Shown here: positions 4,621 to 55,777 of the stretch, in pieces | How positions within the stretch are numbered: position 1 is the first letter of the stretch | How the letters are laid out: every line of letters starts with the position of its first letter | From: a virus | Taxonomy: Duplodnaviria; Heunggongvirae; Uroviricota; Caudoviricetes | DNA length: 64,000 nt | Strand: one strand, 5' to 3' | IMG/VR virus record: IMGVR_UViG_2778261667_000017 | Made by a program: the position numbers and the translations under genes | The notes under the pieces: model-generated | What the model was told of the DNA's origin: nothing | What the model saw: only the letters and a program-made list of their open reading frames with translations | Databases searched by the model: none

Positions 4621-4673
4621 TGGTTTGAACGTGTAGTCAAGGAGTGCAAGGATTATCAAAAAAAGGAGGTTGT

Positions 4674-5564
4674 ATGGAAGACGCGCTTTACGCTTTTAAT
4701 TACACACAGAACCGGGACAAGTTATTTGCTAACTTGATTAGCATCATTGATGGAATCATTGCAGATGGAGTTGTCCGTGAAGAGGAGGTTCTTTACTTAG
4801 ATACATGGTTACTTGAAGCAAAGCAGATTATCAATAATGGAGTTATAAAAAGTCTATCAGCACGGGTGTCGGATATTCTTGCGGATGGAATAATCACATC
4901 AGAAGAACGTGATGACCTTAAAAATAGCCTTCTCCAAATACAGAGGGAAATTCTTGATATCCCTGAAATTGATTTTTACTCCAAGGATGTAGATGTCCAT
5001 TTACTTAATGGACTATGTAAAGGATTAATTGCTGATCGGAACTTAACTCAAGAAGAAATAAGATATCTTAATTGGTGGCTTGAGCAAAATGGAGCTTTGA
5101 AGAACAACTACCCAGGAAAAAAACTTTATGCACTTGTAAAGGAAATTCTTAAAGATGGGGTTATTACTGAAGATGAGAGTTTAACTCTACATAAGGCATT
5201 AGTAGACTTCACAGGATGTGACTTGGAAAGTGGGGTGGTGGATGGTTTGGCGACCAGGCTGCCTATTGATGTAGGGGCTTCGATAGAGTTAGAGGGTAAA
5301 ACCTATTGTCTTACAGGCACTTTTGTTGCAGGAAAGAGAGCCGTAGTTGAAAATTTGATTAAAAATGCTGGTGGGAACATCAGTAGTGGAATTACTCAAA
5401 AGTTGGATTTTTTAGTAATTGGGACGCTTTCCTCCCGTGATTGGAAATTCTCAAGTCACGGAAGGAAGATCGAAAAAGCTATATCTTATAGGGATGATAA
5501 TGGTGCAAAACTTAAAATTATTTCTGAAGAAATGCTTTTCGATGCATTACCAAGTTCGCGATGA
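4674..5564 (+). CDS. BRCT-domain protein with four N-terminal helical repeats, 296 aa
   Basis: AAGGAGG RBS 4 nt upstream of ATG; C-terminus GKTYCLTGTF...KLDFLVIG...KLKIISEEMLFDAL fits the BRCT pattern of NAD-ligase C-termini; four repeats of about 35 aa with D-G-[IV]-[IV]-x-x-E-E signature. Confidence 0.75.
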   Translation: MEDALYAFNYTQNRDKLFANLISIIDGIIADGVVREEEVLYLDTWLLEAKQIINNGVIKSLSARVSDILADGIITSEERDDLKNSLLQIQREILDIPEIDFYSKDVDVHLLNGLCKGLIADRNLTQEEIRYLNWWLEQNGALKNNYPGKKLYALVKEILKDGVITEDESLTLHKALVDFTGCDLESGVVDGLATRLPIDVGASIELEGKTYCLTGTFVAGKRAVVENLIKNAGGNISSGITQKLDFLVIGTLSSRDWKFSSHGRKIEKAISYRDDNGAKLKIISEEMLFDALPSSR

Positions 5565-12167: not shown

Positions 12168-12524
12168 ATGCGTGATATGTATGAAGTATTGGACCGCTGG
12201 GGAGCATGGGCTGCAGCAGAAAATAGTGGTGTGGACTGGCAGCCGATAGCGGCTGGTTTCAAGGGACTTTTACCACACGGTAAAAAGTCACGTCTCCAGT
12301 GTGATGATGATGAAGGCATCATGATAGACGGTTGTGTGGCTCGGTTGCGAAAGTATAAACCAGAGGAATATGAGCTGCTCATAGCTCACTTTGTTATTGG
12401 TATCTCATTACGCACTATTGCCAAGAAGAGAAGATGTTCAGATGGCACAATTAGGAAGGAATTGCAGACTGCCATGGGGTTTGTTGACGGCTGTTTAGCA
12501 ATGTTAGCTTATAGTATGGCATAA
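12168..12524 (+). CDS. Q: Late-gene antiterminator Q, 118 aa
   Basis: Paralogous to the second Q at 52486-52863 (shared MRDxxxVLxRWGAWAA, CxxC pairs). Confidence 0.8.
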   Translation: MRDMYEVLDRWGAWAAAENSGVDWQPIAAGFKGLLPHGKKSRLQCDDDEGIMIDGCVARLRKYKPEEYELLIAHFVIGISLRTIAKKRRCSDGTIRKELQTAMGFVDGCLAMLAYSMA

Positions 12525-13718
12525 AAAATAAAATAGATTTACTGCCGATTTTTCAAAAAAGACTGGGAACTGTTTATATCCAACGTAAATAAGGCCTCCA
12601 TAAAACATGGCTGATGCGAGATATTTAACAGTTCTCATCCTTTTTTTAGCTTTATCAATCAAACCTGTAATGCTACTCTTAATACTATCTGCATTATCTT
12701 TGATTTCTTTATTTTCTTCAAACTTTAAATACTTATCGAAAGCGGACTCCACTCGAGAACGTAAGTTGTCGAATGTTTCATTGAATATCTCAATAGAAAT
12801 GTAATTGACTTTTTTTATCATCCAAAGTCCTGCGATAATCAATATTGCTTCGGTTGTTTCATTAGCCTTCACTAAGCCACCAGCTGCTATTAATGCACCG
12901 GGAATAGTCAATGCTTTTGTCTGATTAGATGATATGAATTCGTTAATTTTACTCGTGAACTCAAGATTTTTCTCATCGAGTTCGTTAAGAATTTTATTTA
13001 CAGAAAACCTCTTTGTGTAAATCTCATATAGTTCATCATATTTTTTTCTGACGAGTTCAGTAGAGTTAAGCAAGTCAAAGAAATTGAATGTACCATTTGC
13101 TTTAAATACTTCGTTTATGGCTGAACGTATAACGAGCTTGCGCTCGCTTTTGTGTAAATCATTGATTTTTATTGTGTCGAGAAGCTCCTTTATAATTTCA
13201 TATTTAAGAGACGAGTTCGATAAGCGATTAATCTCGCTATATTGTAAAAAATGCGTGAGTTCGACTGTATAACTTTTGTCTTCATTGGTGAAAAATAAGA
13301 CAGAGCAGTCACTGTTATGATGATCAGCAATTAATGAAAGGATATCTTTCCACATAAAGAAAATATGGATTTTTTCGATGCTTTCATTCTTAGAAGTAGG
13401 GAGTATTAACGGCGTTCCGATGATATAATTTTTCGGAAGAGCGTTTTGGGTGTTTACTCTAGACCAAAAAGACTCAACATTCTCATAAATTATAGCGTCA
13501 TCCCAAGATGAAGCTTGGCGATCTAGCCAAATTTCATTATTTTCGATGCAGTTTGTTGCCTTTTTATAACCTATAGATTGTAACAGTCTAATTATTTCAG
13601 AACTATTTACAATAACAATGCTTTCTTCAAGACTTATGACAGTGTAGTAGCCCTCAACTCTGCTTGAGGCTCCGTTAATAATCTGCGCTAATCTTGATAA
13701 GTCATCAGCAATTGTCAT
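12504..13718 (-). CDS. Hypothetical protein with C-terminal transmembrane helices, 404 aa (candidate effector)
   Basis: AT-rich; soluble N-domain then predicted TM segments ALTIPGALIAAGGLV, AILIIAGLWMI, YLASAMFYGGLIYVGY; 3' end overlaps Q by 21 bp. Confidence 0.75.
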   Translation of the reverse strand: MTIADDLSRLAQIINGASSRVEGYYTVISLEESIVIVNSSEIIRLLQSIGYKKATNCIENNEIWLDRQASSWDDAIIYENVESFWSRVNTQNALPKNYIIGTPLILPTSKNESIEKIHIFFMWKDILSLIADHHNSDCSVLFFTNEDKSYTVELTHFLQYSEINRLSNSSLKYEIIKELLDTIKINDLHKSERKLVIRSAINEVFKANGTFNFFDLLNSTELVRKKYDELYEIYTKRFSVNKILNELDEKNLEFTSKINEFISSNQTKALTIPGALIAAGGLVKANETTEAILIIAGLWMIKKVNYISIEIFNETFDNLRSRVESAFDKYLKFEENKEIKDNADSIKSSITGLIDKAKKRMRTVKYLASAMFYGGLIYVGYKQFPVFFEKSAVNLFYFLCHTIS

Positions 13719-13720
13719 TA

Positions 13721-14896
13721 TTAGCTGTCTCTATATCTTTTGAGTTCATCATAATTTGCCTGACTCAATTTTATCACAATTTCGCATTTGTTGTCAGTGA
13801 GAATTACAGGCTTATTTGACTTTTCGTCTCCAATAGCTCCACGCATTATTTTCAACTTAAAATTATTGTCGTTATCTGCCACTTCAATTGTAAGCGCGCT
13901 TTCAGCTGCTTTAGGAGTTGGTTCAAATTGAGGATCAATCTGGAAACCATTAAGATTAACAAAATCGACAAACGTTCCCTTACATTTGTGTGAATCAGTC
14001 AGGCATGAGTCAATTATTTTTGAAATATCCTCTATCTTAACGGACTTATTTCCGTATTTATCTTTTGATTTTTTTTCCAGTAAGGATTTAACTTCATTGT
14101 CAATAGTATCACGCAGTACACGACCGAGTGAGTTTTTACTAGCAAAAATATCTATAGCACTGAATAATTGCTGAATGCTTCTTTTATTGTCCGAATCATG
14201 TCGGCAACCTAATGAGTCTTTGAAAAAATCGCTTTTAGATTTACCTTGCAAGAAATGTACATATGAGTCACCCTTGTTTTCTGGATAACTGGCTTCGAAT
14301 AAAGTTAAATCGAACATCGCAGCCTGCCGTAAGGCATCGGTATTAATTGGATTTAATCTTGTTGGGGTCAACTTATCCGAATCAAAGTCATAGGCGCTTT
14401 GTTTATCAACCATTACGATTAGAAGTTTTCCCAAATCCTCTGGTTCGGTAGACTTATAGTGGATGAAAACAACGCTCCCCCCCTGAAGTTGGGCAACTCT
14501 CGATTCGTTATTAGCATTATGTTTAAGCTTCTCTATTATAGCTCTAGATAAATCAATGAATTCATTATTTTTATTAATGTATTTTTTTAGGATCGTAGGA
14601 ATGGATGAAGGGTTGTGATCTGAGTCTAGGAAGTTATGAAATTTGTTTTTTCGGCTAAATTTTTTCTCAATTCTGGTTATGAATTCAGATGTGACTTCAT
14701 TTTTTAGATCCCAAACTTCACCTAATCGATAATCAAATGCTCTTGAATCATTTTTTTCAAGATTTGCTGTTACAGCACCAATAGGAAAGTACGATTGTTT
14801 GCCCAGCACTACAACATGAGGCGTGGCGCCGCATTTATCGCAAGCTACAGTTGGGTCGTCAAGAACATTGCCACATTCTAAACAAGTTATATCCAT
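13721..14896 (-). CDS. Zinc-ribbon + NdpA/YejK-like nucleoid-associated-protein-family protein, 391 aa (candidate sensor)
   Basis: N-terminal CLECG-x12-CDKCG zinc ribbon; GGSVVFIHY...MFDLTLFE...YVHFLQGKSKSDFF align to the remembered YejK core; AT-rich. Confidence 0.75.
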   Translation of the reverse strand: MDITCLECGNVLDDPTVACDKCGATPHVVVLGKQSYFPIGAVTANLEKNDSRAFDYRLGEVWDLKNEVTSEFITRIEKKFSRKNKFHNFLDSDHNPSSIPTILKKYINKNNEFIDLSRAIIEKLKHNANNESRVAQLQGGSVVFIHYKSTEPEDLGKLLIVMVDKQSAYDFDSDKLTPTRLNPINTDALRQAAMFDLTLFEASYPENKGDSYVHFLQGKSKSDFFKDSLGCRHDSDNKRSIQQLFSAIDIFASKNSLGRVLRDTIDNEVKSLLEKKSKDKYGNKSVKIEDISKIIDSCLTDSHKCKGTFVDFVNLNGFQIDPQFEPTPKAAESALTIEVADNDNNFKLKIMRGAIGDEKSNKPVILTDNKCEIVIKLSQANYDELKRYRDS

Positions 14897-25880: not shown

Positions 25881-27360
25881 CACCATTCCGTCGAATACGC
25901 TGGTTCCGCTGTTTTATGCGGAAATGGATAACCAGGCGGCGAATACTGCACAGGACAGCGGAGCATCGCTGCTGATTGGTCATGCCAATAACGGTGCAGA
26001 GATTGTTGCCAACAGTCTGGTGCTGATGCCGTCGGCAGACTATGCACGCCAGATTTGTGGTGCGGGAAGTCAGCTGGCGCGTATGGTCGAGGCTTATCGC
26101 CAGACCGACCTGTTTGGCGAGCTGTATGTGATTGCCGTTCCGGAAGCCACAGGCGCGGCGGCAACGGTTACGCTGACGGTGACCGGGGAAGCAACCGAAA
26201 GCGGCACGGTGAATGTCTATGTGGGACGTACCCGCGTGCAGGCTCCGGTGACCAACGGCGATAACGTCACGACGATTGCCAGCAGTATCCAGGATGCCAT
26301 CAATGCCGTTCCGACTCTGCCGTTTACAGCTTCATCTTCAGCTGGTGTTGTCACGCTGACCGCGCGTCATAAGGGGCTTTGCGGGAATGAAATTCCTGTC
26401 AGCCTCAATTACTACGGCTTCGGTGGGGGCGAAGTGCTGCCAGCGGGCGTACAGATTGCCGTGGCGACGGGGACCGCCGGAACGGGCGCTCCGGTTCTCA
26501 CCGGCGCGGTGGCTGCAATGGCGGATGAGCCGTTTGATTATATCGGCCTGCCGTTCAACGACACGGCCTCCGTTAACACGCTGGTGACTGAGATGAACGA
26601 TACCAGCGGTCGCTGGAGCTATGCGCGTCAGCTGTATGGTCATGTGTATACGGCAAAGACCGGTACGCTGTCAGAACTGGTGACCGCAGGTGACCAGTTT
26701 AACCAGCAGCACATTACCCTGGCGGGGTACGAAAAAGAGACCCAGACGCCTGCCGACGAACTGGCGGCAAGCCGTACCGCCCGCGCAGCGGTGTTTATTC
26801 GCAACGATCCGGCACGTCCCACGCAGACCGGTGAGCTGGTGGGTATGCTGCCTGCGCCGAAGGGGAAACGGTTCACGATGACCGAACAACAGACCCTGCT
26901 GTCTCATGGCGTGGCAACGGCGTATGTCGAAAGCGGGGTACTGCGCATTCAGCGTGATGTCACCACGTACAGGAAAAACGCTTACGGGGTTGCGGATAAC
27001 AGCTACCTAGACAGTGAGACTCTGCATACCAGCGCGTATGTACTGCGCAAACTGAAATCCGTCATTACCAGTAAGTACGGGCGTCACAAGCTTGCCAGTG
27101 ACGGTACCCGCTTTGGTCCCGGTCAGGCAATTGTCACCCCGGCGGTGATCAAAGGGGAACTGCTGGCAACCTACCGTCAGCTTGAGCGTGCGGGGATCGT
27201 GGAAAACTACGAACTGTTTAAGCAGTACCTGGTTGTGGAGCGTGATGCCAGCGATCCGAACCGCCTGAACACGCTGTTCCCGCCTGACTATGTTAACCAG
27301 TTGCGTGTCTTTGCCGTGGTTAACCAGTTCCGTCTTCAGTATTCAGAGGAGTCTGCATAA
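25864..27360 (+). CDS. Tail sheath protein, 498 aa
   Basis: Size and sequence pattern of contractile-tail sheath; followed by tube gene. Confidence 0.9.
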   Translation: MTISFNTIPSNTLVPLFYAEMDNQAANTAQDSGASLLIGHANNGAEIVANSLVLMPSADYARQICGAGSQLARMVEAYRQTDLFGELYVIAVPEATGAAATVTLTVTGEATESGTVNVYVGRTRVQAPVTNGDNVTTIASSIQDAINAVPTLPFTASSSAGVVTLTARHKGLCGNEIPVSLNYYGFGGGEVLPAGVQIAVATGTAGTGAPVLTGAVAAMADEPFDYIGLPFNDTASVNTLVTEMNDTSGRWSYARQLYGHVYTAKTGTLSELVTAGDQFNQQHITLAGYEKETQTPADELAASRTARAAVFIRNDPARPTQTGELVGMLPAPKGKRFTMTEQQTLLSHGVATAYVESGVLRIQRDVTTYRKNAYGVADNSYLDSETLHTSAYVLRKLKSVITSKYGRHKLASDGTRFGPGQAIVTPAVIKGELLATYRQLERAGIVENYELFKQYLVVERDASDPNRLNTLFPPDYVNQLRVFAVVNQFRLQYSEESA

Positions 27361-35549: not shown

Positions 35550-36212
35550 ATGCATCGTATAGACACGAAAACCGCGCAGAAGGATAAGTTCGGCGCGGGT
35601 AAGAGCGGTTTTACCCGTGGTAACCCCCAGACCGGCACACCTGCCACCGATCTGGATGATGACTACTTTGACATGTTGCAGGAAGAACTCTGCAGCGTGG
35701 TGGAGGCATCCGGTGTCAGCCTGGAGAAGGGGCGGCATGACCAGCTGCTTACCGCGCTTCGTGCGCTGCTGTTAAGCCGCAAGAATCCGTTTGGCGATAT
35801 CAAATCGGATGGCACGGTGAAAACGGCTCTCGAAAACCTTGGTTTGGGAGAAGCGGCAAAACGGGATGTGGGGACAGGGGAAAATCAGATACCGGACATG
35901 GCCTCTTTTGCCAGTGGTGATGGATGGATGAAATTACCCAACGGGAAAATCCTGCAATATGGTCGTGGTGCGGTTACGCCGACATTATCGACGCAAACAA
36001 TGAGAATTACATTCAGCATCCCTTTCCCCAAAAAAGCGGACTGCGCCATGCTTACTCATTCTGGTGATGGCGGTGCGCCTTTAGGCGCTGGGCGAGGGTT
36101 CGTGATGACTGCAGAAGGCCCAACGTTAACCGGCTTTAATTCTGCTTACAGAACGTCATCAACCAGCGACACGGTATCGATGAATTACAGTTGGTGGGCT
36201 GTTGGTGAGTAA
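35550..36212 (+). CDS. stf: Tail fibre protein; constant N-terminus fused to the currently expressed variable C-terminus, 220 aa
   Basis: Conserved Mu S / e14 StfE-type N-terminus ([37 protein letters not shown]); crossover site inside the gene. Confidence 0.8.
35834..35853. repeat. Left inverted repeat of invertible tail-fibre segment (pix/gix-like site)
   Basis: aaaccttggtttgggagaag; matches reverse complement of 37717-37736 at 19/20. Confidence 0.75.
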
Positions 36213-37250: not shown

Positions 37251-37771
37251 TATGCAGCCCTCACGATATAGTTAAATGCAATATTTCGTGGACGGGTTTC
37301 ACTCCCGCCAGTATTACCGATACTCCCTCGTGAATGAAGTGTCGGTGATGGGATCAGAGTTCCGCCTGCACTGGTAGCATCCAGCCCCTTGCCCTGTGTA
37401 TATGTATTTCGGAAGATTGTTGCCAGCTCCCATTCCTCTTTTGAATCATGCCCATCGTTAGCTACAACAAAATGACGGTGCTTTTCCAGCATTCCGGCCT
37501 GAATACTCAATAAAACACGTCCTGCATCAATACCGCGCCCGTCATCCCAGCCACGAATAAACTCACCGCGTAAATCAGGTAATTTATTTGTTGGATAAGC
37601 CTTTGCCAGTTCCGGGTATTCTTCAGCAGAAAATGCCGCACCGTTGCATTTCAGCCAGCCTGTTGGCGGTGTGACTGAAGACCATGGAACAGGCACACCA
37701 ACAGGTAATGCAGAGCCTTCTCCCAAACCAACGTTTATGAAAATGCAGAAATAACGAGCAAATGGCATCAT
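37250..37771 (-). CDS. Alternate tail-fibre variable C-terminal segment (fused to stf N-terminus after inversion)
   Basis: Tail-fibre C-terminal sequence; crossover site within its first codons. Confidence 0.7.
   Translation of the reverse strand: MMPFARYFCIFINVGLGEGSALPVGVPVPWSSVTPPTGWLKCNGAAFSAEEYPELAKAYPTNKLPDLRGEFIRGWDDGRGIDAGRVLLSIQAGMLEKHRHFVVANDGHDSKEEWELATIFRNTYTQGKGLDATSAGGTLIPSPTLHSRGSIGNTGGSETRPRNIAFNYIVRAA
37717..37736. repeat. Right inverted repeat of invertible segment (pix/gix-like site)
   Basis: cttctcccaaaccaacgttt; resembles remembered gix consensus; adjacent to pin. Confidence 0.75.
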
Positions 37772-37797
37772 TCCTGCTTTTGTCAGGGGGATCTACC

Positions 37798-38352
37798 ATG
37801 CTTATTGGCTATGTACGCGTATCAACAAATGACCAGAACACAGATCTACAACGTAATGCGCTGAACTGTGCAGGATGCGAGCTGATTTTTGAAGACAAGA
37901 TAAGCGGTACAAAGTCCGAAAGGCCGGGACTGAAAAAACTGCTCAGGACATTATCGGCAGGTGACACGCTGGTGGTCTGGAAACTGGACCGGCTGGGGCG
38001 CAGTATGCGGCATCTTGTCGTGCTGGTGGAGGAGTTGCGCGAACGAGGCATCAACTTTCGTAGTCTGACGGATTCAATTGATACCAGTACCCCAATGGGG
38101 CGCTTTTTCTTTCATGTGATGGGTGCCCTGGCTGAAATGGAGCGTGAACTGATTGTTGAAAGAACAAAAGCTGGACTGGAAGCTGCTCGCGCACAGGGAC
38201 GAATTGGTGGACGTCGTCCCAAACTTACACCAGAACAATGGGAACAGGCCGGACGATTAATTGCATCAGGAGTTCCTCGCCAGAAGGTGGCGATTATCTA
38301 TGATGTTGGTGTGTCAACTTTGTATAAGAGGTTTCCTGCAGGGGATAAATAA
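37798..38352 (+). CDS. pin: Serine DNA invertase Pin (e14 type), 184 aa
   Basis: Near-identical to remembered e14 Pin (MLIGYVRVSTNDQNTDLQRNAL...). Confidence 0.95.
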   Translation: MLIGYVRVSTNDQNTDLQRNALNCAGCELIFEDKISGTKSERPGLKKLLRTLSAGDTLVVWKLDRLGRSMRHLVVLVEELRERGINFRSLTDSIDTSTPMGRFFFHVMGALAEMERELIVERTKAGLEAARAQGRIGGRRPKLTPEQWEQAGRLIASGVPRQKVAIIYDVGVSTLYKRFPAGDK

Positions 38353-38458: not shown

Positions 38459-39292
38459 ATGCATGTTTTTGATAATAATGGAATTGAACTGAAAGCTGAG
38501 TGTTCGATAGGTGAAGAGGATGGTGTTTATGGTCTAATCCTTGAGTCGTGGGGGCCGGGTGACAGAAACAAAGATTACAATATCGCTCTTGATTATATCA
38601 TTGAACGGTTGGTTGATTCTGGTGTATCCCAAGTCGTAGTATATCTGGCGTCATCATCAGTCAGAAAACATATGCATTCTTTGGATGAAAGAAAAATCCA
38701 TCCTGGTGAATATTTTACTTTGATTGGTAATAGCCCCCGCGAGATACGCTTGAAGATGTGTGGTTATCAGGCTTATTTTAGTCGTACGGGGAGAAAGGAA
38801 ATTCCTTCCGGCAATAGAACGAAACGAATATTGATAAATGTTCCAGGTATTTATAGTGACAGTTTTTGGGCGTCTATAATACGTGGAGAACTATCAGAGC
38901 TTTCACAGCCTACAGATGATGAATCGCTTCTGAATATGAGGGTTAGTAAATTAATTAAGAAAACGTTGGGTCAACCCGAGGGCTCCAGGAAACCAGTTGA
39001 GGTAGAAAGACTACAAAAAGTTTATGTCCGAGACCCGATGGTAAAAGCTTGGATTTTACAGCAAAGTAAAGGTATATGTGAAAACTGTGGTAAAAATGCT
39101 CCGTTTTATTTAAATGATGGAAACCCATATTTGGAAGTGCATCATGTAATTCCCCTGTCTTCAGGTGGTGCTGATACAACAGATAACTGTGTTGCCCTTT
39201 GTCCGAATTGTCATAGAGAATTGCACTATAGTAAAAATGCAAAAGAACTAATCGAGATGCTTTACGTTAATATAAACCGATTACAGAAATAA
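38459..39292 (+). CDS. mcrA: McrA type IV (modified-cytosine) restriction endonuclease, HNH, 277 aa
   Basis: Near-identical to remembered e14 McrA; C-terminal HNH (CENCGKNAP...HHVIPLSSGG...CPNCH). Confidence 0.95.
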   Translation: MHVFDNNGIELKAECSIGEEDGVYGLILESWGPGDRNKDYNIALDYIIERLVDSGVSQVVVYLASSSVRKHMHSLDERKIHPGEYFTLIGNSPREIRLKMCGYQAYFSRTGRKEIPSGNRTKRILINVPGIYSDSFWASIIRGELSELSQPTDDESLLNMRVSKLIKKTLGQPEGSRKPVEVERLQKVYVRDPMVKAWILQQSKGICENCGKNAPFYLNDGNPYLEVHHVIPLSSGGADTTDNCVALCPNCHRELHYSKNAKELIEMLYVNINRLQK

Positions 39293-39528
39293 AATTGTTT
39301 ATTAAAGTCACATTTAAGACGTAATACCCTACAGGGTAAAAATTTTCTCTGATCTTAACTTCTGCAAATGTTAACTGCTATTTTTATGCTAAAAATGGTT
39401 ATCAAAACTCAAAAACACATGTTTATAATCAATGAGTTATAGAAATGCTAAGGGCTAATGAGTTATATGCAAATTAGTAAAATTATGTTGCTATCTCAAA
39501 TAGTTACGATTTAGTCATCTAACTAATG

Positions 39529-39690
39529 CTGCGCCATATGGGTTGGACTGAAGCGGCTGACCTGATTGTTAAAGGTATGGAAGGCGCAATCAATGCCAAG
39601 ACCGTAACCTATGACTTCGAACGTCTGATGGAAGGCGCTAAACTGCTGAAATGTTCAGAGTTTGGTGACGCGATCATCAAGAATATGTAA
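39529..39690 (+). pseudogene. icd: icd 3'-terminal fragment (last 53 codons of isocitrate dehydrogenase) at prophage junction
   Basis: Translates to [53 protein letters not shown]; no icd 5' part upstream. Confidence 0.85.
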
Positions 39691-39713
39691 TCACTACATG
39701 TGTTAAATATTGA

Positions 39714-39745
39714 AACGGGCGTATAACACGCCCGTTGTTTTATGA
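39714..39745 (+). terminator. icd rho-independent terminator
   Basis: Hairpin aaacgggcg-tataaca-cgcccgtt followed by gttttatg. Confidence 0.65.
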
Positions 39746-39756
39746 TGATTTAAAAT

Positions 39757-39793
39757 CTTCCCCAAAACTTTCCCCAAAACCCTTCCCCAAAAC
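39757..39793. repeat. Three tandem copies of (c)ttccccaaaac between icd terminator and prophage-2 int
   Basis: cttccccaaaac / tttccccaaaac / ccttccccaaaac; possible arm-type or accessory-factor sites. Confidence 0.6.
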
Positions 39794-39803
39794 TGGCTAT
39801 TTT

Positions 39804-40946
39804 CTATGCTGTTTTGATATCTACGATAATCCAGTCTTTACCACGATCATCATTGTATCGGTCGGTCATTTTTCTGGATTTATGACCTAACAACTTTTGC
39901 GTATCCAGACCCTGTTCCCGATATAACCGTTCTGACAGAGATCGCTGCTCATGAAATGTGGGCGCAGTTCCTTGCTCCCATTTTATGCCACATTTTTCCC
40001 TGGCCTTTTTAAAAGCCGTTGTAAGAGTATTTGCAGACACCTGGTCTCCTCTGTTTGCTTGAGAGGTAGTGTGACGGTAATGGACCAGATATTTACTAAC
40101 AACAGCATCCCTGCACTGAGATATAACTTCACGAAGGGTAATATTCAGAGCATCGCATTTCAGGTTAAGCGGAATAGCAAGTTTTGAACCGGTTTTTTCC
40201 TGAGTAATGTGCAACATGTCGTCCCAGATATCAGAGAATTTCAAATTGCAGATATCGCCTAAACGTTGTCCAGTGACAAGAGCAAGTAGCATCCCGCATT
40301 TTAAATAGGGCTGCCGTCTGCTTACGCTGTCAAATATTGCCTGCCATTCGGGCAGTGATAATCTTTGGCGGTTTACTCGATTTCGCGGTTGTTTTGTTGC
40401 CTGCGCTGGGTTAAATCCTGGCGGAACATGTCCGGCGTGTTGTGCTTCTTTGAAGACGTCGATCAACACCATTCTCACGACTTGCGCCATCCTGTTATGA
40501 CCTTCAGCCTTTACAGCATCAATTATTTCGGCAATATCAAGTGCGGTAATATCCTTGAGGTGTTGCATTCCACAATGCTCACGGAAAAGACGAATGGGTT
40601 TGCCTTTTTGCCGATAGGAGTTGGGTCTTAGTTCATTATGTTGCAGCCTGTCCTCCTGGATAGAAATATATTTATCAAGCCATTCTGTCACCGTAATGTC
40701 TGAGCGCCTGCCTTTCATTCTTTCCAGACGCTCATTGACGCTTAATATTTGTCGGGTACGTTGTTCAGCAATAATGGTATTTGCTTCAGTAGCAACTTGT
40801 TTTGCTTCATTCTCATCAGTTCCTAAGCTATGAAAACGACCGGATAGTGGATGTTTGTATTGCCAATATACCTTTCCGGTTCGCTTATCTAATTTGCAAT
40901 ATAAATTGGGTATAGAGATTTTGTGAGATCGGGGGCTAGCAGCCAT
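39804..40946 (-). CDS. int: Tyrosine integrase of prophage 2, 380 aa
   Basis: Paralogous to integrase at 1-1128; adjacent to icd fragment and xis. Confidence 0.9.
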   Translation of the reverse strand: MAASPRSHKISIPNLYCKLDKRTGKVYWQYKHPLSGRFHSLGTDENEAKQVATEANTIIAEQRTRQILSVNERLERMKGRRSDITVTEWLDKYISIQEDRLQHNELRPNSYRQKGKPIRLFREHCGMQHLKDITALDIAEIIDAVKAEGHNRMAQVVRMVLIDVFKEAQHAGHVPPGFNPAQATKQPRNRVNRQRLSLPEWQAIFDSVSRRQPYLKCGMLLALVTGQRLGDICNLKFSDIWDDMLHITQEKTGSKLAIPLNLKCDALNITLREVISQCRDAVVSKYLVHYRHTTSQANRGDQVSANTLTTAFKKAREKCGIKWEQGTAPTFHEQRSLSERLYREQGLDTQKLLGHKSRKMTDRYNDDRGKDWIIVDIKTA

Positions 40947-53018: not shown

Positions 53019-53543
53019 TTATTGTTTAACCCATAATAATTCATTGACATTGAATCCCAACTTTTGAGCGGTTCGCACATAGTCTGCTTTTACTTTATCT
53101 GGAATAGTTGGGGTCCTTGCCAGAATCCATAGGTATTCTCTGTTCGGACCACTGACAAGAGCATACTTATACTCATCATCCAGTTTGATTACATTATAGC
53201 CACCATAGAAGGGGCCAAAAAACGAAACCTTCAACGCTGCAGTTTTAGTATCTCCAGTAAAGTATGCTTTACCTTCGCTCTCGCTCCATTTATTTTTCGT
53301 TGGATCGTATCCACGGTTAAGTACACGAATCCCTCCGTCGTTCCGTTTTCCATAAGTAGCGCTGACCTGTTCCAGACCACGTTCGAACCGGTTCTCGAGG
53401 CGAGCTATTTCATACCACTTTCCGAGGTAGCGGTTGGCGTCAAAATTTGTAATCGGCTGCACACCTTTAGGTGGTGTCGGGGCCTTACATGCTATAAGAG
53501 TGAAAGAGAGTGCAATGCCAGTCAACACAGGCCATAACATCAT
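53019..53543 (-). CDS. Blc-like bacterial lipocalin lipoprotein, 174 aa (moron)
   Basis: Lipoprotein signal with lipobox (LIAC) and lipocalin motifs (NRYLGKWYEIARL). Confidence 0.85.
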   Translation of the reverse strand: MMLWPVLTGIALSFTLIACKAPTPPKGVQPITNFDANRYLGKWYEIARLENRFERGLEQVSATYGKRNDGGIRVLNRGYDPTKNKWSESEGKAYFTGDTKTAALKVSFFGPFYGGYNVIKLDDEYKYALVSGPNREYLWILARTPTIPDKVKADYVRTAQKLGFNVNELLWVKQ

Positions 53544-53735: not shown

Positions 53736-54695
53736 ATGATAAAAAAACCTGTGATTGGAATCAGCGGTTGTTTGGCCGGTTCTGCTGTTCGTTTTGATGG
53801 TGGTCACAAAAGAGCTGACTTTTTAATGGACAAATTAGTGGAATGGGTAACATTCAGACCAGTATGTCCGGAAATGGCTATAGGGCTGCCAGTTCCGCGT
53901 CCTGCTCTACGTCTTGTGCGCTCGACGCAAGGAAATATACGGATGTGTTTCAGCCACGACCAGAATGAGGATGTGACAGAGAGAATGACAGAGTTTAGTC
54001 GTTCTTATATGGACAAATTAAAGGATGTATCGGGGTTTGTGGTTTGTGCTAAATCTCCCAGCTGTGGCATGGAGCGCGTGCGTGTCTATGATGAAAATGG
54101 TAATCGAGGTCGTAAAGATGGAGTGGGACTATTTACGAGCACTTTGATGGAAAAGTTTTCCTGGCTACCGGTTGAAGAGGATGGGCGATTACATGATCCA
54201 GTGCTTCGTGAGAATTTTGTTGAAAGAGTTTTTGCTTTGCATGAGCTCAATCACCTTTACAAGGAGAAATTATCAAGAAGAGAGTTATTAGCTTTTCATA
54301 GTCGTTATAAGCTTCAGTTGTTGGCGCATAGTCAGGCAGGCTATAAAGATATGGGACCATTTGTGGCTGCAATACACGAGTGGGCGGACCTTGAATCATA
54401 CTTTGAGGTGTATCGTGATAAGCTGATGGCGATTCTCAGAAAACCTGCATCACGTAAAAATCACACGAATGTGCTGATGCATATACAGGGGTATTTTAGT
54501 AACTACTTAAGTACACGCCAGCGTAAAGAGTTGAGCGAGGTTATACTTAACTATCGTTCTGGCACATTACCTCTTCTTGCGCCGTTGACTCTGCTGAAGC
54601 ATTATCTGGGTGAGTATCCTAATGATTACTTGCTTACACAGAATTACTTCGATCCCTATCCGGACGAACTGGCTCTAAGACTGATGGTAAATTAA
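53736..54695 (+). CDS. DUF523 (TudS-like thiouracil desulfurase) / DUF1722 fusion protein, 319 aa (moron)
   Basis: N-terminal Cys motifs (GISGCLAG, CPEMAIGLPVPRP, CAKSPSCG) typical of DUF523; YbgA-like C-terminal half. Confidence 0.7.
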   Translation: MIKKPVIGISGCLAGSAVRFDGGHKRADFLMDKLVEWVTFRPVCPEMAIGLPVPRPALRLVRSTQGNIRMCFSHDQNEDVTERMTEFSRSYMDKLKDVSGFVVCAKSPSCGMERVRVYDENGNRGRKDGVGLFTSTLMEKFSWLPVEEDGRLHDPVLRENFVERVFALHELNHLYKEKLSRRELLAFHSRYKLQLLAHSQAGYKDMGPFVAAIHEWADLESYFEVYRDKLMAILRKPASRKNHTNVLMHIQGYFSNYLSTRQRKELSEVILNYRSGTLPLLAPLTLLKHYLGEYPNDYLLTQNYFDPYPDELALRLMVN

Positions 54696-55036: not shown

Positions 55037-55777
55037 GTGGATAATATGCCATACATATGTTCTATCATTTTGGTGTTGAACTCGTTTGATGTCCGAATTG
55101 GTAAAGAAGATATTTTGTTTAAAAAAGGAAGTGCTGTTCTCATTGATTACAATTTAAAAGATTTTTTTTCATCAAATATAGATCATGTAATGATCGTAGA
55201 TGTTGAAGAGAAAACAGTTAATGATTTCTTTAAAAGCAACACACTCTCACCTTTTTCTGTAAGAAGGTTTTATCCGGCATACTTGATGGTGGAATGTGAA
55301 GATTTTTCATTGTTAAAGAACTTGATTGCATGCTTGAATTGTGATGGCAGAACTGTGGATTTTGTTAGAAATCAAATATCACTTGCATGTCTTGCTATCT
55401 TATCTTCAGAGAAAATAGTGCAAAGTTTTTTATTTGGATGTCTTAATAGTTTAGGAAGTAAAGTTAAGGCTATTATTCACACGGATATATCTGCAGCATG
55501 GAGACTTTGTGATATATCTTCAAGACTGTATCTGAGTGAAAGTCTGTTAAAAAGAAAATTAAAGCACGAAGGCTTATCATTTAGTAAGTTAATTCTTGAA
55601 GAGCGAATGGTGATGGCGGAAAGGTTATTAAGCTACAATTTATATTCTGTTGGAAAAGTTGCTGAGATATGCGGTTATGAAAACACGTCATATTTTGTAA
55701 GTGTTTTCAGAAGGTATTTTGGTGTTCCTCCCCATCAATATTCATCAAGATTTTTTTTAGAAAAAGACATGATGTAA
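55037..55777 (+). CDS. AraC-family transcriptional regulator, 246 aa (moron)
   Basis: C-terminal AraC-type HTH (VGKVAEICGYENTSYFVSVFRRYFGVPPHQY); AT-rich. Confidence 0.8.
   Translation: MDNMPYICSIILVLNSFDVRIGKEDILFKKGSAVLIDYNLKDFFSSNIDHVMIVDVEEKTVNDFFKSNTLSPFSVRRFYPAYLMVECEDFSLLKNLIACLNCDGRTVDFVRNQISLACLAILSSEKIVQSFLFGCLNSLGSKVKAIIHTDISAAWRLCDISSRLYLSESLLKRKLKHEGLSFSKLILEERMVMAERLLSYNLYSVGKVAEICGYENTSYFVSVFRRYFGVPPHQYSSRFFLEKDMM

Follow-up and report, generated by a model that had tools for sequence, protein, structure and literature searches.

Phages of the phage 21 type and the element e14 both integrate in icd (PMC12803456; PMC6379469). It has also been reported that the three att sites of a tandem prophage pair normally resemble each other (PMC10111431). 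In Escherichia coli K-12, e14 is a 15-kb remnant; its attR lies in the order pinE-mcrA-icdC-iraM, and its attL consists of icd with an e14-supplied 3' end. The GenBank record of phage 21 (OL657228.1) annotates, upstream of int, an 'ICDH-like' pseudogene, a terminator and an attP feature of three subsites (P1P2P3) with the consensus YYTTCCCCAAAA. Tandem arrays at one attB, such as the K-12(21) lysogens with 21 beside e14 and the tandem islands resolved by TIGER-type mapping, have an internal att site that shares its core with the outer sites, and the locus described below would have the same property. Wang et al. in 1997 reportedly studied K-12(21) lysogens in which 21 adjoins e14, and by this account the repeats as well as the tandem arrangement of e14 and 21 have been described before.

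The locus lies in a stretch of DNA of 64,000 nucleotides, which was analyzed as a whole and is hereafter called the window. We propose that positions 39293-39803 of the window are the hybrid att site of two tandem icd prophages, in which attR of an e14-like prophage 1 is joined to attL of a 21-like prophage 2, and we put the probability of this reading at about 90%. The junction is the classical case of an attB shared by phage 21 and e14, which is already known, and its repeats are already annotated in GenBank. Unlike the K-12(21) lysogens, however, the array comes from a natural isolate and contains a full-size e14-like phage.

Layout of the junction

The list of open reading frames and the sequence between 38800 and 41200 gave the order mcrA, AT-rich spacer, icd 3' end, terminator, repeats, int and xis, with int and xis on the minus strand (Table 1). 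The spacer between mcrA and the icd fragment is 233 bp long, AT-rich and non-coding, and the terminator has a stem of 9 bp with six GC pairs (39714-39736), followed by GTTTTAT. The site as a whole is a hybrid, in which an e14-type P arm is followed by a common core (39526-39542) and then by a 21-type P' arm. In gene order, in the P-arm sequence up to the core and in the presence of TTATCAAAA at -128, it resembles the K-12 e14 attR (pinE-mcrA-icdC). The two differ after the core, where K-12 has the chromosomal icd 3' end and then iraM, whereas the window has the 21-type P' arm and a second prophage.

All elements named in an initial annotation of this DNA were located, with offsets of 1-3 bases at most. 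That annotation had placed the 3' end of icd and its terminator, with no icd 5' part, between mcrA and the integrase of prophage 2. Both are present there (39526-39690 and 39714-39736), and the rest of the window was free of icd DNA in a blastn search with a word size of 7. When 39293-39810 was used as the query in this search, neither further icd-like DNA nor a second core was found in the 64-kb window, and the only other hits were chance matches of ≤23 nt.

Table 1. Features at and around the junction (window coordinates).
Feature	Position	Strand	Basis or remark
Prophage 1 integrase, e14 IntE type, 375 aa	1..1128	-	Arm-DNA-bind_1 (E=4e-37) + Phage_integrase
pin-type DNA invertase, penultimate prophage 1 gene	37762..38352	+	Resolvase + HTH_7; K-12 order pinE-mcrA-icdC
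mcrA, HNH 5-methylcytosine endonuclease, last prophage 1 gene	38459..39292	+	HNH domain; McrA annotation under matches in K-12 and others
P arm of e14-type attP, prophage 1 right end	39293..39525	+	Colinear with K-12 e14 attR up to core
TTATCAAAA, candidate e14-type arm site in P arm	39399..39407	+	128 bp upstream of core
IHF-consensus match AATCAATGAGTTA (39427-39439) and two direct AATGAGTTATA copies (39431-39441, 39457-39467)	39427..39467	+	e14 P arm
Shared core/crossover region	39526..39542	.	Alignment of attL, attR, attP and hybrid sites
icd copy on phage DNA, final 53 codons + stop	39526..39690	+	Iso_dh C-terminus
Intrinsic terminator, phage-borne copy of icd terminator	39714..39743	+	Stem-loop 39714-39736 + T-rich tail
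Three tandem TTCCCCAAAAC dodecamers, proposed P'1-P'3 arm-type sites of 21-type integrase	39758..39793	+	Repeat search
Prophage 2 integrase, phage 21 Int type, 380 aa	39804..40946	-	Arm-DNA-bind_1 + catalytic domain
Prophage 2 excisionase, 78 aa	40936..41172	-	Pfam Exc; excisionase annotation in phage 21 and relatives

Core and bounds of the crossover

The att-site alignment took in the K-12 e14 attR (pinE-mcrA-icdC-iraM), the K-12 attL (icd with the e14-supplied 3' end), the attP of phage 21 and the three att sites of E. coli strain 82.0311, which is described below. To the left of 39526, the window is unrelated both to icd and to the P arm of phage 21, and from 39526/39527 rightward all compared sites are alignable. 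The block ATGCTGCGCCA (39526-39536) is identical in the e14-derived and the icd-derived partners of K-12, and the two K-12 sites differ at 39537. The attP of phage 21, in turn, agrees with the window at every base from 39527 to 39542. Given the K-12 identity block and the range of identity with phage 21, the crossover is bounded to 39526-39542. The partner switch occurs at this core in all four combinations of arms, and a palindrome, CCATATGG (39534-39541), lies inside the bounded region.

We also considered a crossover further to the right than the core, as suggested by three SNPs at 39543, 39555 and 39558, where the window reads T/G/T and phage 21 reads C/C/A. This was rejected, since phage 4A7 also reads T/G/T at these positions; the SNPs therefore represent allelic variation among 21-type phages.

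Origin of the icd fragment and the terminator

The 54-aa ORF at 39526-39690 matches the C-terminal end of the Pfam Iso_dh profile (positions 301-348 of 348, E=1.5e-6), and it also matches the icdC pseudogene of K-12. This raises the alternative that the fragment is the displaced chromosomal 3' end of icd (icdC, as in K-12) and that prophage 2 was inserted just past the icd terminator, at 39743/39744. Such an insertion would fit the extent of similarity to the K-12 e14 attR, which is 97.8% identical to the window across the terminator as far as 39743 and diverges beyond it; the match covers query positions 1-544, corresponding to window 39200-39743, and homology to the K-12 chromosome stops at 39743. 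However, the whole block from 39527 to 39803 is also contiguous with int in the genomes of the free phages 21, 4A7, ev017 and ev207, with 98-99% identity continuing through int and xis. In total, 27 phage records match from 39524/39532 to 41200 at 98-99% identity, including those of phage 21 (OL657228.1, M61865.1) and of the free lambdoid phages 4A7, 3W, ev017 and ev207. This contiguity in free phages indicates that the icd fragment, the terminator and the repeats are DNA of prophage 2 and not a chromosomal relic, and that homology to K-12 reaches only as far as 39743 because the phage, too, carries a copy of the host terminator.

Nucleotide differences argue in the same direction against a displaced icdC. 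Across the 217 nt that run from the core to the end of the terminator, the window differs by only 2 nt from the attP of phage 4A7, as against 8 nt from K-12 icdC; the attP of phage 21 differs by 13 nt, and e14-type icd ends differ by 26-29 nt. The encoded icd C-terminus, which the initial annotation had proposed to compare with chromosomal icd with respect to its E and K variants, carries the phage-type K residue: the window reads ...GDAIIKNM, as do phages 21, 4A7 and ev017, whereas K-12 icdC reads ...GEAIIENM. The e14-type Icd of K-12 reads ...LMDGAK...IIENM. In addition, strain 82.0311 has a further icd' at the far end of its 21-like prophage, which is what integration at the icd core would produce. 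On the SNP counts and the colinearity with phages, a displaced chromosomal icdC was rejected, and we regard it as very improbable.

As judged from these sequence comparisons, the entire segment 39527-39803 is the P' arm of prophage 2, which refines the initial annotation. The few SNPs also place the module of the window closer to 4A7 than to phage 21 itself. On integration, the 21-type P' arm would replace the 3' end of icd, with 53 codons, the stop codon and the terminator all supplied by the phage, so that icd would be left intact whenever a 21-type phage integrates. In the tandem state, the icd copy at 39526-39690 is silent, and it would serve as the functional icd 3' end after excision of prophage 1.

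Two prophages and their integrases

Prophage 1 extends from position 1 of the window to about 39525. Its gene content comprises an S24 repressor, terminase, portal, capsid protein, tail sheath and tube, baseplate, tail fibres, pin and mcrA. The right end consists of pin, mcrA and a P arm that ends at the icd core, as in e14, and the integrase is of the IntE type, being 96% identical to IntE of K-12 and 96% identical to intE of strain 82.0311. Because the window starts at the stop codon of this gene, attL of prophage 1 and the 5' part of icd would lie upstream of the window. In contrast to the 15-kb remnant in K-12, prophage 1 occupies about 39.5 kb of the window and has a complete structural gene set of the myovirus type.

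Prophage 2 begins at 39527 and continues beyond the end of the window (64000), and it encodes Int, Xis, exo/bet, a gam-like protein, SieB, CI, O, P, lysozyme, a lambda-type terminase (gpA) and portal. Its Int agrees with phage 21 Int at 376 of 380 residues (99%) and contains Arm-DNA-bind_1 (E=5e-27). As in phage 21, the core is separated from int by the last 53 codons of icd, a terminator and YYTTCCCCAAAA repeats, and over about 1.68 kb the module is 98.2% identical to OL657228.1 and 98.3% identical to M61865.1. The order is the same as that of attP-int-xis in phage 21 (OL657228.1, M61865.1, AF017626.1) and in 4A7, 3W, ev017 and ev207, with identities of 98.2-99.3%. The integrases of prophages 1 and 2 are 60% identical to one another, and both have the lambda-type combination of Arm-DNA-bind_1 and Phage_integrase domains in Pfam.

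It could be argued that the window contains one composite or rearranged prophage, in which the icd fragment is an inert internal relic and the elements are no longer separable. Only one of the three att sites expected for a tandem pair is inside the window, and the best E. coli genome matches cover no more than 65% of 27001-52000; either element could be decayed. Against this stand two domain-intact integrases, two excisionase regions, two S24 repressors, two terminases and two portals. Moreover, the two halves are colinear with separate elements, namely e14-like prophages or vB_EcoM-689R6 on the one side and phage 21 or 4A7 on the other, and the arms on either side of the core are both intact and have the motifs at the canonical offsets. 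A single composite prophage was rejected on the duplicated modules, and we consider it very unlikely; the two full sets of lysogeny and packaging genes thus indicate two prophages.

The initial annotation had described two lambdoid prophages stacked at icd. With regard to the stacking, the integrase types, the duplicated modules and the switch of arms at the core all agree with it, and the tandem arrangement stands. The term 'lambdoid' does not hold for the virion of prophage 1, since the contractile-tail genes indicate a virion that is e14-like rather than lambda-like.

Several other features of the two prophages were observed. A 20-bp inverted repeat (35834-35853 and 37717-37736, 95% complementary) brackets 1.9 kb upstream of pin; the bracketed segment contains oppositely oriented ORFs for a tail fibre and tail-fibre assembly, and it resembles a host-range segment of the kind inverted by Pin. 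Prophage 1 also has, between its early and its late region, a two-gene cassette on the opposite strand (12504-14896, minus strand), which codes for a protein of 391 aa that has an NA37 nucleoid-associated domain and for a 404-aa protein for which neither Pfam nor PADLOC gave a match. This may be a moron or a defence cassette. A protein of 306 aa encoded beside the S24 repressor of prophage 1 (4644-5564, plus strand) has a BRCT domain at its C-terminus and a weak match to the PADLOC candidate PDC-S48 (E=2.7e-7). The PADLOC scan of unusual neighbouring genes gave nothing convincing. Upstream of its lysis genes, prophage 2 has apparent cargo, consisting of a Blc-like lipocalin (53019-53543, minus strand), a 2-thiouracil desulfurase/DUF1722 protein (53736-54695) and an AraC-family regulator (55037-55777).

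Proposed arm-type repeats

Exact copies of TTCCCCAAAAC were found at 39758-39768, 39770-39780 and 39783-39793, with spacings of 12 and 13 bp, and no further exact copy is present in the 64-kb window. The initial annotation had already noted three tandem repeats adjoining the integrase of prophage 2, at 39757-39793, and the three exact copies at 39758-39793 bear this out. Tandem Repeats Finder gave the dodecamers scores of 58-60.

The offsets of the motifs were counted from the core TGCTGCGCCA. In the phage 21 type, the motif TTCCCCAAAA is found at -129 in the P arm and at +231, +243 and +256 in the P' arm. In the e14 type (K-12, 82.0311 and vB_EcoM-689R6), another motif, TTATCAAAA, is found at -128 in the P arm and at +233, +244 and +257 in the P' arm. 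The window combines the e14 P-arm motif with the three 21-type P' copies, and TTATCAAAA occurs at the matching offset in the window, in the 82.0311 hybrid, in the K-12 attR and in locus L014. The P'-arm dodecamers are unvarying in phages 21, 4A7, ev017, ev207 and 2E9, and all five have a fourth exact copy at -129. In the window, unlike in the attP of phage 21, the phage's own P arm with this fourth dodecamer is replaced by the P arm of e14, because prophage 2 is integrated beside another prophage.

In both types, a repeated arm motif is thus present in the P and P' arms, with one and three copies, respectively, and its sequence differs with the integrase type. The initial annotation had suggested that the repeats may be arm-type binding sites, and this suggestion fits the covariation of the motif with the integrase type, position for position, and the fourth copy in the P arm of phage 21. 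Since both integrases have the lambda arm-binding domain, arm sites are to be expected. From their position, copy number and covariation across two integrase types, we propose that the dodecamers are arm-type sites. The occurrence of one attP architecture with two motifs is what would be expected if the motif sets the specificity of the integrase over a common core.

The arrangement resembles the attP of lambda in the arm-binding N-domain of the integrase, in the three tandem direct repeats in the P' arm beside int and in the presence of a P-arm copy. However, the motif sequences are unrelated to the arm consensus of lambda, C/AAGTCACTAT. The P' sites also lie about 230-265 bp from the core, compared with about 55-85 bp in lambda, because the icd 3' end and the terminator sit in between. 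In the P arm, where lambda has the sites P1 and P2, the 21 type has a single clear motif copy and one inverted copy with two mismatches. From the P-arm copy of phage 21 to the third P' copy, the span is about 395-397 bp. The minimal attP of 21 was reportedly delimited at 366-418 bp by Wang et al. in 1997, a range said to extend to the outermost of the repeated dodecamers, for which the 1992 thesis of S. J. Schneider reportedly proposed a role as arm sites. The measured span fits this size.

We also considered whether the dodecamers bind another factor (Xis, Fis or a regulator of int), or whether they act in the 3'-end processing of the int mRNA. The repeats are directly 3' of the minus-strand int gene and might conceivably play a part in its transcript. 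However, three tandem P' copies beside int together with one P-arm copy form the lambda pattern of P'1-P'3 plus P-arm sites. The motif, moreover, switches with the integrase type at fixed positions and keeps to its arm in both kinds of hybrid (see below), and both integrases have the arm-binding domain. The Xis sites of lambda are in the P arm and not in the P' arm. Taken together, a role other than that of arm-type sites seems unlikely.

Between the arm site and the core of the e14 P arm, the match to the IHF consensus, AATCAATGAGTTA, overlaps the first of the two AATGAGTTATA copies, which are spaced 26 bp apart. Going by sequence, these may be candidate IHF and XisE sites; in the window, matches to the IHF consensus number 5 against 3.15 expected, which is not above chance.

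Distribution and related arrays

Of 5426 complete E. coli genomes, 1657 contain the int of the 21 type together with its P' arm, 337 contain the e14 P arm as in the window, and four, which are two pairs of near-identical strains, contain the joined mcrA-icd'-int21 junction; these counts are not to be read as avoidance, since the 337 seem to consist mostly of laboratory derivatives of K-12. The exact hybrid pattern was not found in the GTDB species representatives or in JGI metagenome contigs. One IMG/VR contig of 7.3 kb has the same hybrid, with 98.7% identity over 4.2 kb.

Strain 82.0311, the closest relative with a tandem pair, shows how such an array is built as a whole. Its order is phoP-purB-...-rluE-icd-[cargo, intE, xisE ... 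pinE, mcrA']-icd'-[int, xis ... J, sitABCD]-icd'-ycgX-bluR, and it therefore carries three icd 3' ends, as a tandem array requires. Thus, the internal att site is seen in the window, and the full set of three sites is seen in this relative. Two further observations were made in 82.0311. In the first (L001, 18862-20091), mcrA is cut to a 144-bp remnant and a gene for a GIY-YIG (LEM-3-like) nuclease lies beside pinE, which indicates that e14-like prophages vary in the cargo slot that they have at their right end. In the second, the flank after the last icd' and terminator (L008, approximately 26700-26760) contains degenerate e14-like dodecamers, GTTATAAAAT followed by GTATCAAAA at +244. They give a hint that, in the 82.0311 lineage, the native 3' flank of icd may be what is left of an earlier P' arm of the e14 type.

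The reciprocal hybrid was found in three IMG/VR contigs (L015, 2688-2947, minus strand; L016, 13519-13778, plus strand; L017, 4507-4766, minus strand). It consists of the P arm of the 21 type with TTCCCCAAAA at -129, the same core, and the P' arm of the e14 type with three copies of TTATCAAAA. Both tandem orders therefore exist in nature. In both kinds of hybrid, the arms exchange at the core and each motif stays with its arm.

Proposed recombination at the junction

With regard to the mechanism, each integrase would act as a lambda-type heterobivalent recombinase. The catalytic and core-binding domains would work at the common icd core, and the N-terminal domain would bind the integrase's own arm sites, IntE at TTATCAAAA and Int21 at TTCCCCAAAA. 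Under the lambda paradigm, the sites recombined in excision would be attL, where the P' arm is found, and attR, where the P arm is found. Prophage 1 would then excise by means of the P arm at the hybrid site and the P' arm at the attL beyond the window, presumably its own, and prophage 2 would use the P' arm at the hybrid site and the P arm at the attR beyond the window, again presumably its own. Since the hybrid retains the P arm of e14 and the P' arm of 21, each prophage would keep both cognate arms, and each should therefore be able to leave the array on its own, by means of its own Int and Xis. If prophage 1 excised, a normal attL(21) would remain, in which the 5' part of icd is fused to the 21-type 3' end, so that the encoded Icd has the E and K variants. 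If prophage 2 excised, what remained would be a normal attR(e14) with the structure P(e14)-core-icd' known from K-12. In K-12(21) lysogens, e14 is reported by Wang et al. in 1997 to excise itself much better than it excises the adjacent 21 prophage.

The sequence identities, the breakpoints, the layout of the repeats and its covariation with the integrase type were observed directly; protein binding, the order of integration and competence for excision at this junction are what we infer here. As to its formation, the junction could equally stem from homologous recombination within the 217-bp icd-like repeat as from Int-mediated integration. We also considered mixed synapses of IntE and Int21, because both tandem orders occur, the integrases are 60% identical and the core is common. 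Such synapses might excise both prophages as one unit of about 85-90 kb, a size estimated from strain 82.0311, or might swap arms to give phages with a chimeric attP. We hold this to be very unlikely; if true, however, mixed synapses would be a route for the evolution of arm specificity at a fixed attB.

Implications

The junction raises no new question, but it is of use in annotation. A pseudogene labelled 'isocitrate dehydrogenase, partial' at this place is phage DNA that marks an att site and not a decayed host gene, and 39526/39527 is the exact boundary at which to split two elements that prophage callers would otherwise merge. In the design of orthogonal integration systems, the locus may also serve to some extent as a template. 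It illustrates a known principle, namely that related integrases can share one attB core and be orthogonal through different arm motifs at the same positions.
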